From Leucoraja erinacea (lineage: Eukaryota): a DNA stretch of 64,000 nucleotides. The stretch spans positions 18,600,001-18,664,000 of the forward strand of contig NC_073385.1 of NCBI RefSeq assembly GCF_028641065.1, given 5' to 3'. Below, piece by piece: positions 906 to 63,257 of the stretch. A model generated the notes under the pieces. That model was not told the origin of the DNA and did not search any database. It saw only the letters and a list, made by a program, of their open reading frames with translations. A program made the position numbers and the translations under genes. The number at the start of each line of letters is the position of its first letter. Position 1 is the stretch's first letter.

Positions 906-2079
906 CTGGAGGGGGCAAAGGACAGGGTCAGTGTCGGCAAGGAATGAGTGCAAGGCACCAAAAACTCAGTCAGTCTGACGAAGGGTCCCAACCCGAAACC
1001 TCACCCCTCCCCTCTTCTCCAGAGATGCGGCCTGGCTCGCTGAGTTACTCCAGTATTTTGTCTCTCTTGAGTTTCACTTTTAGAGATACGGCATGGAAAC
1101 AGGCCCTTCAGCCCACTGGGTCCGCGCCGACCAGCGATCACCCAGTACACTAGCACTATCCCACACACTAGGGACTGTTTACAGAAGCCAATTAACCTAC
1201 AAATCCGCACGTCTTTGGAGCGTGGGAGGAAACCGGAGCTCCCGGAGAAAACCCACGTGGTTTTTAGTTTAGAGATCCAGCTTAGAAACAGGCCCTTCGG
1301 CCCAACGGGTCCGCGCCGACCAGCGATCCCCGCACATCAACGCCATCCTATACACACTGGGGGCAATTTTTACATTTACCAAGTCAATTAAACCTACAAA
1401 CCTGTACGTCTTTGGAGTGTGGGAGGAAATCGAAGATCTCAGAGAAAACCCATGCAAGTCACGGGGAGAACGTGCAGACTCCGTACAGACAGCGCCTGTA
1501 GTTGGAGTTTTTTGGTGTAAACCAGCATCTGCAGTTCCTTGTTTATACGCCCAGTCAGTGAAGCTGGAAAGGGCGTAGAGAAGATTCTGAAGATGTTGCC
1601 AGGACTTGAGGGCCTGATCTACAGGGAGAGGTTGAGCTGGCTGGGAGTTATCTTTGGAGCGCAGGAGGCTGAGGGGTGACCTTATTGAGGTGCACAAGAT
1701 CATGAGAAGGCACAGATAAAGTGAACACTCACAGTCTTTCTCCCAGGGTAGAAGATTCTAAGACTGGAGCACACAGGTTGAAAGTAAACGAGACGTTATT
1801 TAACAAGAAACATAGAAACATAGAAAATCGGTGCAGGAGGAGGCCATTCGGCCCTTCGAGCCAGCACCACCATTCATTGTGATCATGGCTGATTGGCCCC
1901 AATCAATAACCCGTGCCTGCCTTCTCCCCATACAGGCAGTTTAAAAGGCATTTGGACAGGTGCATGGATAGGATGTGGGTCAGATGGAGGCAGGTGGGAC
2001 CAGTGTAGATGGGGCGTCTTGGTCAGCATGGATAAGTAAGTTGGGGCCTGTTTCCGTGCTGTGAGAGAGAGAGATAGCT

Positions 2080-3075
2080 ATGGCATAAACTACAGCTCTG
2101 CCTTTAATACCATTACACCATCCATGCTCGTCACCAAACTCACTGGATTTAGTGCCAGCTCTCATCTCTATAACTGGATCCTTGACTTCCTGACCAACAG
2201 ACCCCACTCAGTGAGGATAGGGGAGGTCAGAGGGAGAATGTAAATCTCGTACAAGGAAGCACACGTCGTCAGGATCGAAACCCGGGTGTTGGCTGTGAGG
2301 CTGCAAATCAACGCATGAGCCCACCGTGCTGCCCTACAAATTATCCTCTACGATGACCCTCAACACTGGTGCTCCACAAGGCTGCGTTCTCAGCCCCATC
2401 TTTACTCCTTGTACACCCACCACTGTGCAGCCACGTACTAATCTAATTCAATTTTAATAATTCCACAGACGACACCACCGTCGTGGGTCGGATAACAACT
2501 AATGATGAGACGGAGTACGGGAAGGAGATCGAGAACCTCGTGTCCGCGTGTCGAGATCAACAACCTTTCTCTCAATGTCAGCAAGACAAAGGGGACAGTG
2601 ATGGACTTCAGGAAGTGAAGTTGTCCACATTCCCCAGTTTGCATTGACGGTGCCAAAGTAGGGAAGGTTGAAAACTAGGCGTCAATATCACCAACTACAT
2701 CTCCTGGGCCACCCATATTGAAGCAACGACCAAGAAAGCACATCGACACCTCTACTTCCTTTGAAGGTTTAGGAAGTTCTGCATGTCCCCAACAACTCTC
2801 CCCAACTTCTACAGATGCGCCGTAGAGAGCATTTTATCGGGATGCATCACAGCTCGGTTTGGGAACAGCTCCATCCAAGACAGCAAGAAATTGCAGAGAA
2901 TTGTGGATGTAGCCCAGACCATCACGCAACCCAACCTCCCTTCCATTGACTCCATCTACACCTCACGCTGCCTCGGCAAGGCCAGCAGCATAATCAAGGA
3001 CCAGTCTCACCCCCAGTCACTCCCTCTTCTCCCCTCTCCCATCGGGCAAGTGGTACAGAAGTGTGAAACACGCAC
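2080..3075 (+). mobile_element. Rex1/Babar-like LINE 3' fragment
   Basis: [51 protein letters not shown]. Confidence 0.75.
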
Positions 3076-3105
3076 GCACAGCTCCACAATAATAAGAGAA
3101 CTTAC

Positions 3106-3188
3106 TTGGCCGAGGTGCAAAGTTGATGAGTTTGCTTTTCACTTTCACTGCCAGCGGTGAGTAGCGACATTTCCTGGGCGGGGCTCTC
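3106..3188 (-). CDS. HHIPL1: HHIPL1 coding exon 8
   Basis: Acceptor tttcccag; RAPPRKCRYSPLAVKVKSKLINFAPRP. Donor GTAAGT; 83 nt. Confidence 0.9.
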
Positions 3189-3889
3189 CTGGGAAATGGA
3201 CACAACAAGTGATTATGCTTGAGGTGACCCCTTTCTCCCCCCCACACCCACCCATGCTGTCCCTGCCCTGAGAGGGTACAGAGGGAGGTAGACACGAAAT
3301 GCTGGAGTAACTCCGCGGGACAGGCAGCATCTCTGGGGAGAAGGAATTGGTGACGTTTCGGGCCGAGACCCTTCTTCAGCGTAGTGGGTGCTTCGCTCTG
3401 TATCGATCCAACACAGAGAAAATTGAGTGTTACAGAACATAGCACAGGTCAATAGACAATAGGAATAGGCGATTCGGCCCTTCGAGCTAGCACCGCCATT
3501 CAATGTGATCATGGCTGATCATCCGCAATCAGTACCCCGTTCCTGCCTTCTCCCCATACCCCCTGACTCCGCTATCGTTAAGGGCCCTATCTTGCTCTCT
3601 CTTGAAAGTATCCAGAGAACCGTCTTCCACCGCCCTCTGAGGCAGAGATTTCCACAGACTTACAACTCTCTGTGAGAAAAAGTGTTTCGTCGTCGCCGTT
3701 CTAAACGGCTTACCCCTTATTCTTAAACTGTGGCTCCTGGTTCTGGACTCCCCCAACATAACGTAGTTGGGACATGTTGGCCAGTGTGGGCGAGTTGGGC
3801 CGAAGGGCCTGTTTCTGTGCTGTGTGACTACGACTCTACAATTCCTCTCCAGAGACTTCTCCCTCCCCCTCCCCCTCCTCCAACCTAAT

Positions 3890-60700: not shown

Positions 60701-61606
60701 GACAAGATGGGCTGAACGGCTCTTATCCACACTCTATGACTCTCCAATTCAGATATCATTCTGGCAATCCAGGGCATATTCTAAAACTGAGATCAAAGGT
60801 TCAAGAGTTTAGTAGTTCAGTATTACAATACTGGTCTTCATTGCAACATTTATCGAGCTGCAATTCAATTCCTTTTTCGCAGTTTACCAATAATCTTAGA
60901 AACAAGGAACCGCAGATGCTGGTTTACAAAAGAAAGCGGCCCAGTGCCGCAGCGGTAGAGTTGCTGCCTCACAGCACCAGAGACCCGGGTTCCATCCTGA
61001 CCTGGGGTGCTGTCTGTACGGAGTTTGCACGTTCTCATGATTGTGGTCGGAGTTTGTACGTAAGCCAGCACATCTTTCCTCAGATACGGTGCACAAAACT
61101 GCTCACTTAACTCCAAATGCGGTCTGACCAGCGCCTTATAGAGCCTCAGCATTGCATTCCTATGTGAAAATGTGGGGAGAAGGTTCTGACCTCAGTCAGC
61201 TCACCCTTCAGCCCTTTCTTCCCAACCTATCCCATTTCTCCCTAATCCAGGCAACATCGTCAGATTCACTCATTTCCTGCACTATAGTCATACAGTACTT
61301 GTCCACGCCAAGCAAGATTCCCCATCTCAGCAAATCCCTCCTGTCCGCATCTGGCCCACATCCCTCTAAAACTTTCCTATCCATCTCCCCTGACCAAATG
61401 CCATTATAGTCCCAGCCTCAACTACCTCCTCTAGCAGTTCATTCCATACACCCACTGTGTGGAAAAGTTGCCCCTCAGGTTCCTATTAAAACGTTCACCG
61501 CTCACCCTAAAGCTATGCCGCCTGGTTCCTGCTTCCCTTCCCCGAGGGTTAAAAGGCTCTGTAAATTCACCCTAGCCATTCTCCTCATAATTCTACACAC
61601 CTCCAT

Positions 61607-61800
61607 NNNNNNNNNNNNNNNNNNNNNNNNNNNNNNNNNNNNNNNNNNNNNNNNNNNNNNNNNNNNNNNNNNNNNNNNNNNNNNNNNNNNNNNNNNNNNN
61701 NNNNNNNNNNNNNNNNNNNNNNNNNNNNNNNNNNNNNNNNNNNNNNNNNNNNNNNNNNNNNNNNNNNNNNNNNNNNNNNNNNNNNNNNNNNNNNNNNNNN
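61607..61800. other. Assembly gap
   Basis: Run of 194 N. Confidence 1.
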
Positions 61801-63082
61801 ATTTATGAATCCCAAGATCCTGGAGCGCTGCCTACGCCACCACGCCTCGCCACACGCCATTACAGGAGGTAGTTGAGGCAGGTACTATAACAATGTTTAA
61901 AATACCTTTGGACAGGCATGTGGATTGGAAAGGTTTAGAGGGATGTAGGCCAAATGTGGGCAGGAGGGACTAGCGTAGATGGGGCATCTTGATCAGCATG
62001 GGCAAGTTGGGCCGAAGGGCCTGATTTCACGCTATATAACTTTATAACTCTATGGATATGGGCCAAATGTGGGCAGGAGGGACTAGTGTAGATGGGGTAT
62101 CTTGGTGGGCATGGGCAAGTTGGGCCGAAGGGCTTGTTTTGGTGCTGTACCACTCTATGACTCTAGTCTGGTCAGGGTACGAGTGCTTCTGCCAGGAGTC
62201 TTTGTGGGCATCTTGTTAGTGGTGAACCGTCTGCTGGTGTTGGGGAAGGGGTGACGTATGAAAGGGAACAGGTCACCTGGCACAGGTGAGGAGGCTGTGA
62301 CATCACGCCCACAAGCCACTGCTTCCATTCATGATGTCACACAGCAGGGAGCTTTGTTCAACATGGCTGCTCGCAGAGGGACGCCAAGCTAACCCCCGAG
62401 CAAGGACCACAGCGATCAGGAGCGACAGAGAGACGCCAACTGACGTCCACAGGTCAGTCTCACCTTGGGCCACAACACCAGCTGGTCGAAACTCAAATTT
62501 GAAAAAGTGTTGCCCTACAGGTCCCAGTCCGAAACGTCACCTATCCACGTTCTCCACAGATGTCCACAGATGCTGCCTGACCTGCTGAGTTACTCCAGCA
62601 CTCTGTGAAACGTCACCTATCCACGTTCTCCACAGATGCTGCCCGACCCGCTGAGTTACTCCAGCACTCTGTGTCTATCTTCAGCCTACACCAGGCCCTG
62701 TCTCCCAGAGAGGGATCACGGAACCGGGGGCTAACTGCTCCAAAAAGTGGTCGTAATGCCGTACAGGCCCTTCGGCCCGACCCGTCCATACCAGCCCTTC
62801 AAAGCAAATCCCATTTGTCCATGAATGCCCCATCTAAACTGGTCCCACCAGTCCGTGTTTGGCCCATATCCCTCTAAACCATTCCTATCCATGTTCCTGT
62901 CAAAATGTCTTCCAAATTATCCATGCCTCCTTGACCTCCTCTGGCAGCTCACTCCGTAAACCCACCACCTTCTGTGTGAAAAAGTAGCTCCTCGGGTTCT
63001 TGTTAACTCTTTTCCCTCTCACCGTCAATCTATATATGTTGCCCTGCCTCTGATTCCTCGACCCTGGGGTATAAGATTCTGT

Positions 63083-63257
63083 ATAGGCAAAATTGCTGGA
63101 GAAACTCAGCGGGTGCGGCAGCATCTGTGGAGCAAAGGAAATAGGCCTCGAAACGTTGCCTATTTCCTTCGCACCATAGATGCTGCTGCACCCGCTGAGT
63201 TTCTCCAGCAATTTTGTCTACCTTCGATTTTCCAGCGTCTGCAGTTCCTTCTTGAAC
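63083..63257. mobile_element. Foldback Penelope-tail element with 12-bp TSD
   Basis: ATAAGATTCTGT at 63071-63082 and 63258-63269; inverted arms of about 60 bp; inserted in a CR1 fragment. Confidence 0.8.

Follow-up and report, generated by a model that had tools for sequence, protein, structure and literature searches.

Short Penelope pseudo-LTR stubs that carry minimal hammerhead motifs, and their young 66-nt tandem derivative, in the genome of Leucoraja erinacea

The 64-kb window studied here (positions 18,600,001 to 18,664,000 of contig NC_073385.1 from the 2.19-Gb genome of Leucoraja erinacea) is interspersed with a short repeat that is the 3′ end of a Penelope-like element (PLE), i.e., its pseudo-long terminal repeat (pLTR) plus an optional tail of ~30 nt. 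The parent element encodes a reverse transcriptase (RT) and a GIY-YIG endonuclease (EN), and its pLTR carries a hammerhead motif composed of a core around CUGAnGA, stems I and II, and a short palindrome as stem III. A profile built from genomic copies finds 26 matches in the window at E ≤ 0.01; the best hit among 10 dinucleotide shuffles of the window was E 0.033 (seed profile), and a reversed 1 Mb gave none. The density of 4.1 matches per 10 kb, compared to a genome mean of 5.2, is ordinary for this genome. The profile covers every place at which a first-pass annotation of the sequence had listed the repeat except 13728, where there is only a fragment of ~23 nt below the profile threshold. 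The 31-mer quoted there as the start of the repeat does not occur exactly in the window and is found at 5 places with up to 2 mismatches. Taken together, the most probable explanation of our results, which we hold with good confidence, is that most of these pLTR stubs come from uncut Penelope RNA and that a young 66-nt derivative has been copied by homology into older stubs.

The link to the parent element can be seen within the window on the plus strand, where a 5′-truncated and frameshifted EN end of a Penelope-like open reading frame (ORF; 3862–4201, start approximate) is followed by a pyrimidine-rich 3′ untranslated region (UTR; 4202–4303) with a (C)ATCAGT motif at its end that has one change here, and then by a subtype B pLTR end without tail (4304–4410) that has an intact core and a broken stem III palindrome. 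The frameshift stems from an 8-nt insertion, and the peptide has 73% identity to the EN end of an RT-EN ORF, though a Pfam search of this fragment gave no match. The EN remnant proposed to lie directly before 4308 is real, with its stop codon ending at 4201, but it does not adjoin the hammerhead because ~100 nt of pyrimidine-rich UTR precede the CUGA. At the same place, a private change at 4306 confounds a loose end seen at 4307 in the assembled contigs compared, which may stem from DNA.

Across the 26 matches in the window, all 11 core nucleotides are kept in only 5, and core, 4-bp stem II, CG palindrome, and 2-bp stem I are kept together in none. Single stubs lie at 971–1075 (plus; short, core intact, palindrome broken), 3285–3379 (minus; short, core, stem II, and palindrome intact, 5′ strand of stem I missing), 5433–5533 (minus; short, C3/U4 unmatched), 18870–18965 (plus; without CUGAnGA), and 60102–60204 (minus; subtype B, G12 changed to A, 12-bp target-site duplication). 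Tailed stubs are found at 6758–6888 (plus; core broken), 10397–10482 (minus; starting 3′ of the hammerhead), 42392–42525 (minus; core broken), and, as a partial copy, 44902–44981 (minus). The stub at 42392–42525 has a duplicate at 49029–49162 (plus), and since both lie within one inverted duplication of 492 nt with 98% identity, they count as one insertion. The weak match at 13720–13742 (plus; E 0.059) is a piece of the hammerhead left half, and two small pieces at 1510–1542 (plus; tail only) and 38452–38480 (minus) lie beyond the earlier list. Head-to-head pairs occupy five of the places listed earlier: 19727–19893 (tail on the minus arm only; plus arm with intact core and broken palindrome), 44664–44858 (15-bp target-site duplication), 47415–47615 (subtype B, one arm tailed, 13-bp duplication, without CUGAnGA), 51707–51900 (minus arm tailed and with an internal deletion, plus arm with intact core and one stem II mismatch), and 63077–63253 (subtype B, one arm tailed, 11-bp duplication, without CUGAnGA). 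Target duplications of 11 to 15 bp thus accompany 4 of the 14 window insertions tested, i.e., three head-to-head pairs and the single copy at 60102–60204. Finally, 62500–62699 (plus) belongs to the 66-nt tandem family, with a decayed left part, a junction at 62606/62607, a second unit at 62607–62672, and then a stub 3′ end.

The Penelope origin of the repeats is borne out by EN-bearing loci elsewhere in the genome that run into the same pLTR end. Using the EN peptide before 4308 as query, we obtained 95,816 first-look candidates, scored 150, and fetched 30 loci, of which 24 could be aligned while 6 were excluded as broken off or interrupted. All 24 have a stop codon, a pyrimidine UTR of ~100 nt, CATCAGT, and CUGAAGA and continue to the 3′ end with or without the ~30-nt tail; no spliced copy was seen among these 24, the only loci in which splicing was looked for. 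Queries with the N-terminal part of RT and with the 5′ body (as DNA) returned 8,856 and 2,049 candidates, rough figures that, like the one for EN, are not comparable copy numbers. Of 20 long loci, 19 have RT motifs A–C and then EN in the expected order, the exception being L206 with no EN downstream, and the ORF scores above the cut-off for RVT_1 (30.9 bits, E 2.7e-7) and below it for GIY-YIG (E 0.0088); none of the loci examined holds an uninterrupted full ORF. In full-length copies, a pLTR with hammerhead motif and the ~30-nt tail continue straight into the element body, whose ORF (RT plus C-terminal GIY-YIG) is followed by the pyrimidine UTR, the second pLTR, and the optional tail. In L221, L228, L233, and L237, the long ORF has its first ATG shortly after the tail (~40 nt 3′ of it); this ATG overlaps an AAG/GTATG donor-like site in some copies, and upstream of it the frame stays open across the hammerhead region. 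The translated linker between RT and EN reads C-N-R-x-x-C-x-x-C, and Cys-rich CX2-5CxxC linkers at this position are of the Neptune type and common to Nematis (PMC8557442). Judging by this motif, the element likely belongs to the Neptune clade. At least four 3′ UTR families of ~100 to 250 nt share one pLTR end in the random-sample loci L061–L160, which suggests several successive Neptune-like subfamilies.

Genome-wide figures come from a random sample of 100 stretches of 10 kb drawn from 34 large contigs, some of which were taken as shorter than they are when drawing. This 1 Mb contains 523 matches (5.2 per 10 kb, bootstrap 4.5–5.9) in ~405 insertion units that make up 4.8% of the DNA, so that the SINE-like density anticipated by the first-pass annotation holds and extrapolation gives roughly 10^6 arms for the genome. 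Stub density shows no significant correlation with GC content (rho 0.15, p 0.15). Only 32 of the 523 matches have an EN piece no more than 330 nt away, leaving ~94% not EN-linked, and the linked share differs between subtype A (9 of 122) and subtype B (15 of 38). EN-bearing parents exist for both of these subtypes, and none was found among 33 copies of subtype C.

A minimal hammerhead with a palindromic ACGU stem III had been proposed for the repeat, and the majority sequences of subtypes A, B, and C agree: they show CUGAnGA, an extra base after A9, the G10.1-C11.1 pair, a 4-bp stem II, GAAA, the ACGU palindrome, and GUC or GUU. Such type I minimal hammerhead ribozymes (min-HHRs) sit in the pLTRs of metazoan PLEs and have been reported in fish Neptune, Poseidon, and Xena elements (Cervera & De la Peña 2014, PMC4209133). 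The skate motifs resemble those described in that work by their location in the pLTR, the extra base between A9 and G10.1, the G10.1-C11.1 pair, the palindromic 15.2-16.2 without loop 3, and their occurrence mostly as single dispersed motifs with some opposite-strand pairs. A stem I of only 2 bp is shared with D. virilis, whereas stem II has 4 bp compared to 7 to 8 in Schistosoma. Exact intact motifs number 43,406 genome-wide, versus 4,000 to 9,000 reported with different search methods for coelacanth and Xenopus (PMC4209133). In the random 1 Mb, a descriptor search found 21 hammerhead matches (reversed control: 0), all of them members of this repeat family and none of any other hammerhead family, and helix I has 2 bp rather than 4 to 5 in 19 of the 21. 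An Rfam scan of the window returned no hammerhead family among 21 weak matches; two of these, at 47444–47561 and 63099–63205, are just the head-to-head palindromes.

The further suggestion that the genome is seeded with catalytic remnants at such density is not supported, with 21 descriptor matches against 523 repeat matches per Mb and a 2-bp stem I. G12, which lies in a CpG, is changed in 33% of 226 copies and hence decays like the other CpG G's (27% to 31%). Differences between subtypes are pair-compatible but one-sided (U-A to U·G in stems I and II), and two-sided covariation is absent from all 14 pairs in 15 window copies. Fold prediction also disfavours the hammerhead in monomers and dimers, with -11 to -13 kcal/mol for the dimer structure compared to a minimum of -16 to -27 kcal/mol (stem I pairs excluded). 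Minimal motifs of this type cleave weakly as dimers (PMC4209133), and the hammerhead of Anolis Poseidon cleaved only with protein and was dispensable for insertion in vitro (PMC11167929). The skate hammerhead may similarly act as a weak, dimeric, or protein-assisted ribozyme in master elements only, and insertion would not depend on it.

The ends of the stubs are more informative about how they arose. Their 3′ ends in the random sample form two groups at model positions ~92–113 and 129–133, the pattern expected if synthesis starts internally at one site on either side of the tail. Head-to-head pairs are far more common than chance predicts (88 vs 5.1), and among the 61 pairs that could be classified by tail, 50 combine a tailed arm with a tailless one (30.1 expected, p 1.4e-7). 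Target duplications of at least 8 bp flank 17 of the 88 pairs compared to ~1% in controls, stub duplications being 8 to 15 bp long. The head-to-head junctions differ from copy to copy. A CAG-T-CTG near-palindrome at the 5′ edge of the hammerhead joins the arms in 6 of the 88 pairs (L065, L078, L087, L141, L148, and L152). Other pairs overlap in stem II, so that the ribozyme's own symmetry may supply the joining microhomology.

At the 5′ side, we calculated truncation hazards for 267 single arms after dropping 50 (edge, short 3′ end, or poor anchor). The hazard is 0.060 per nt from -10 to +2 relative to C3, 0.011 at +3 to +27 and at -11 to -60, and 0.002 to 0.004 elsewhere. The smoothly continuous length distribution that had been named as the mark of ordinary truncated copies is therefore not what we see, given 0.060 per nt with ~0.011 on either side. 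Base frequencies are back at background by about -7. Duplication calls were made for 29 of 232 arms, 9 of them array artefacts; 10 of the remaining 20 place the boundary at -5 to 0, compared to none of 27 control calls in 695. Judged by eye, 7 of 30 body-bearing loci start at -10 to +2, 14 further upstream, and 9 downstream. Only 6 of 523 matches have their 5′ end at the cleavage site, versus 11 in each adjoining bin. Because the boundary is common to short and body-bearing copies and does not coincide with the cleavage site, the stop is a property of the Penelope RNA, which likely served uncut as the template. Most stubs are thus likely short reverse transcripts of uncut Penelope RNA and not a separate ribozyme-driven element.

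Similar to what was described for the Anolis Poseidon element PAc (Frangieh et al. 2024, PMC11167929), the protein of the skate element would nick either DNA strand, and cDNA synthesis would start at two internal sites bracketing the tail. Initiation in the 5′ pLTR would then give a run-off product of 100 to 135 nt that extends to the first base of the RNA, which likely lies at a putative initiator-like TCAGT just before the core, and priming on both strands would generate the head-to-head palindromes. The sequence TCAGTCT fits the initiator consensus. Penelope promoters are internal as well, with an Inr/DPE (initiator/downstream promoter element) promoter in D. virilis Penelope (PMC2377424) and an Inr-like TCACT in the Adineta pLTR (PMC3846280), and it is these two points that suggest the run-off. 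PAc shares with our element the two initiation sites around the tail, a tail that equals the start of the body, and the cutting and extension of both strands; its hammerhead is unneeded for insertion, and no reads fell at the cleavage site (PMC11167929). In contrast, PAc belongs to another clade than the skate element with its Cys linker. EN-containing PLEs in general show 5′ truncation, partial tandems, an inverted 5′ copy, a tail of 30 to 40 bp at one end, and target-site duplications of 8 to 10 bp (PMC8557442, PMC3846280). All of these features were counted in the stubs, including a tail at one end only, whereas the shortness of the stubs (~94% not EN-linked) and the 5′ pile-up at the hammerhead edge are not described in the available parts of those accounts.

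Another way to produce the 5′ pile-up is a 3′ splice site or an RT block at the pyrimidine/poly-C tract upstream of the hammerhead, with stubs being truncated copies primed at the element 3′ end. We regard this as possible yet clearly less likely than a run-off. The tract ends in CAG one base ahead of the U preceding C3, an intron of D. virilis ends where helix I begins on its 5′ side (PMC4209133), truncation beyond the site proceeds at a low and even rate, and the CAG-T-CTG sequence is the point of joining in the 6 pairs mentioned above. However, the boundaries spread over about -5 to 0 and not at one base, all 24 aligned EN-linked copies keep the UTR and none is spliced, and the D. virilis and Adineta promoter motifs (PMC2377424, PMC3846280) speak for a transcription start. 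The first-pass annotation, by contrast, had read the ordinary ~130-nt stubs as an independent, non-autonomous SINE-like family with its own internal promoter that is mobilised in trans. A discrete 5′ boundary, own target duplications, the mere 32 EN-linked matches of 523, the predominance of short copies in subtype A, and the finding in Adineta that sequences of the pLTR are enough for mobilisation in trans (PMC3846280) would all agree with this. We nevertheless find it unlikely, since body-bearing copies show the same boundary, parents that bear EN and have longer UTRs were found for subtype A too, and head-to-head junctions vary per copy as expected if each is made afresh. A retrozyme-like independent mobility of ordinary stubs is similarly unsupported, given the shared start of 7 of 30 body-bearing copies, the EN-bearing parents of both main subtypes, and 5′ ends that are not enriched at the cleavage site. 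Non-LTR retrozymes have a complete hammerhead in each unit of 150 to 450 nt (PMC7229834; 51 to 972 in bioRxiv 10.64898/2026.07.22.740005), and complete-hammerhead tandems 150 to 400 nt apart are not typical here: ordinary stubs are mostly single or head-to-head, and of 30 tandem neighbours among the 523 matches, 14 are 66-nt units without CUGAnGA and few others repeat the core. In both behaviour and identity, the repeat family is a Penelope pLTR bearing a minimal hammerhead motif; it is not a non-LTR retrozyme.

A derivative that spreads without coding sequence does exist, however, in the form of the 66-nt arrays. The copy at 62500–62699 contains a junction from model position 92 back to 26, i.e., a unit of 66 nt (model 26–92), and this junction has 16,203 exact matches genome-wide (control: 0). 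It is bridged by contigs in 4 of 4 assembled-contig runs compared, which are coded as four organisms, one possibly the source; Tandem Repeats Finder did not detect the window's two-unit array. The unit lacks CUGAnGA and stem II and keeps the substrate half ACGUC/AC and the 3′ hairpin. Lacking the CUGAnGA half, it is therefore not hammerhead-driven in cis. We examined 67 arrays, 8 from the random Mb and the rest from search matches and contig C2. They have 1 to 8 junctions and end at many phases. Inner units differ from a natural reference unit by 69 changes in 4,026 nt (1.7%), and most of their CpG sites survive intact (57 and 53 of 61), whereas the left halves of arrays are 27% diverged (27 scored) compared to 15% in ordinary stubs, and first units are of types A, B, C, and older. 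In-register run-on into stub sequence at one or both ends occurs in 52 of the 67 arrays, with 39 running 5′ into a stub left half, 37 running 3′ into a stub end, and 24 doing both. Target duplications of at least 8 bp are seen in 2 of 64 arrays. The random sample includes 8 loci no further than 2.5 Mb from a contig end, and all of its arrays are confined to 4 of these (p 1.8e-5); ordinary stubs are not enriched there. A 225-nt composite unit on several contigs joins a 66-nt array to a captured inverted subtype B stub (L097, L278, L282, L066, and L091); it has 1,374 exact junctions, and the first 100 listed all lie within ~7 Mb of contig ends, with none on C2–C4. Three further ideas were rejected: a megabase-scale strand bias of arrays (one unbroken 200-kb stretch has 10 on the minus and 6 on the plus strand), their enrichment in palindromic stubs (23 of 62 vs 162 of 391, p 0.58), and a rescue of the cis hammerhead by tandem duplication, given that only 5 of the 67 arrays retain an intact left half (one each) and that the hammerhead fold in those 5 is predicted 6 to 14 kcal/mol above the minimum-energy fold, with none predicted to prefer it.

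Young units in old and varied hosts, the absence of fresh duplications, and the local patches point to homology-directed copying, by which the arrays likely spread from a DNA or RNA template. The template would be an array, or a circle derived from one, and the process would be gene conversion or homology-directed repair between stubs that lie close to each other; for the copying step we lean moderately towards DNA-level conversion or repair as the simpler route. Alternatively, the arrays could be rolling-circle reverse transcripts of a 66-nt circular RNA, which Penelope hammerheads would release in trans from tandem transcripts, with the Penelope protein inserting the products where older stubs are nicked. 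The variable unit number, many end phases, in-register placement, and absent target duplications would suit such a process, each unit carries the substrate half, and in Anolis the protein both nicks the pLTR sequence of its own element and assists the hammerhead (PMC11167929). Local patches and the region-restricted 225-nt composite fit DNA-level spread at least as well, though, and an intact left half is found in only 5 of 67 arrays, where the hammerhead fold is disfavoured, so we judge rolling-circle insertion doubtful. Similarly doubtful is its fuller form, a ribozyme-less 66-nt parasite of the pLTR that has homed into thousands of older stubs in local patches, captured a 160-nt piece of a host stub, and is copied from circular or tandem RNA processed in trans by the Penelope hammerhead and protein. 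Ordinary target-primed reverse transcription of one master stub with a tandem duplication is largely excluded and seems the least probable origin of all: 37 of 67 arrays do have a normal stub 3′ end (14 scored with tail), but 30 do not, duplications accompany only 2 of 64, inner units have diverged by just 1.7% while the first units and flanks around them are old and belong to several subtypes, and arrays are patchy, whereas stubs are not enriched near contig ends. Compared to non-LTR retrozymes, the arrays are likewise short, non-coding, tandem, pLTR-derived, and patchy, and like Xenopus retrozyme multimers they are enriched near chromosome ends; unlike retrozymes, their unit has no complete hammerhead, lacking CUGAnGA and stem II, and is placed inside older stubs.

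Several observations weigh against our interpretation of uncut templates and homology-directed copying. Non-CpG core positions changed less often than expected in 62 subtype A copies (24 vs 35.6) and 26 subtype B copies (3 vs 11.1), with pooled rates of 7.0% compared to 11.7% at base-matched non-core sites. Such slower change is not predicted by pure neutral decay and may reflect selection, ascertainment, or hidden subfamilies. The hazard peak is somewhat too high, since every copy without significant upstream extension was binned there, including some older families whose UTR is outside the library. As judged from the sequence, a splice acceptor (pyrimidine tract plus CAG) or an RT block would yield the same 5′ pile-up as a start at TCAGT, and the clade assignment has a single linker motif as its basis. 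Most of the 67 arrays come from first-listed matches and one region and not from a random draw, 15 have no stub flank at either end, and both the window's array and the dense patch on contig C2 (16 arrays in 200 kb) are interior and not terminal. Some flankless arrays, among them L319 (contig C2, 25.387 Mb), have up to 8 junctions and lie inside LINE fragments without duplication, like filler at a repaired break.

Many of the window's stubs sit in introns of a minus-strand gene with SRCR, folate-receptor-like, and GSDH domain exons (385–927, 9980–10369, 12809–13522, and 18352–18894), which is presumably HHIP-like. A single-exon rhodopsin-family G protein-coupled receptor (GPCR) is present as inverted copies at 35135–36373 and 53352–54590 with 97% identity, and partial copies include 59276–59973; this is a recent local duplication. 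An inverted segmental duplication (41918–42765 and 48789–49634, 98% to 99% identity) includes one stub. Other mobile elements comprise a tyrosine-recombinase-like fragment, probably of the DIRS type (33191–33595), a decayed L1-like element with RT and a coiled-coil ORF1 (54703–59212), and many other LINE pieces.

The association of hammerheads with Penelope is already known, and the ordinary stubs are a member of this known kind, of which the tandem 66-nt derivative is a variant. Neither the 66-nt arrays nor PLE stubs of chondrichthyans were described among the papers listed by our literature search, though the supplements of PMC4209133 and bioRxiv 10.64898/2026.07.22.740005, the latter of which covers one chondrichthyan, may list these families. 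The stubs amount to ~1 million natural insertion records that agree with the sole biochemical study of a Penelope protein in pointing to two start sites, priming of both strands, and uncut RNA, and they point to a candidate RNA start site. In the 66-nt arrays, a piece of the pLTR has recently multiplied with no coding capacity, no catalytic ribozyme half, and no target duplications. Whether by gene conversion or through an RNA circle, they bear on the origin of retrozymes and dispersed minisatellites and on the role of the Penelope hammerhead. If the unlikely case of an RNA-templated 66-nt parasite were true, it would be a vertebrate case of homing in which no enzyme is encoded and would offer a snapshot of how retrozyme-like tandems and minisatellites arise from pLTRs.

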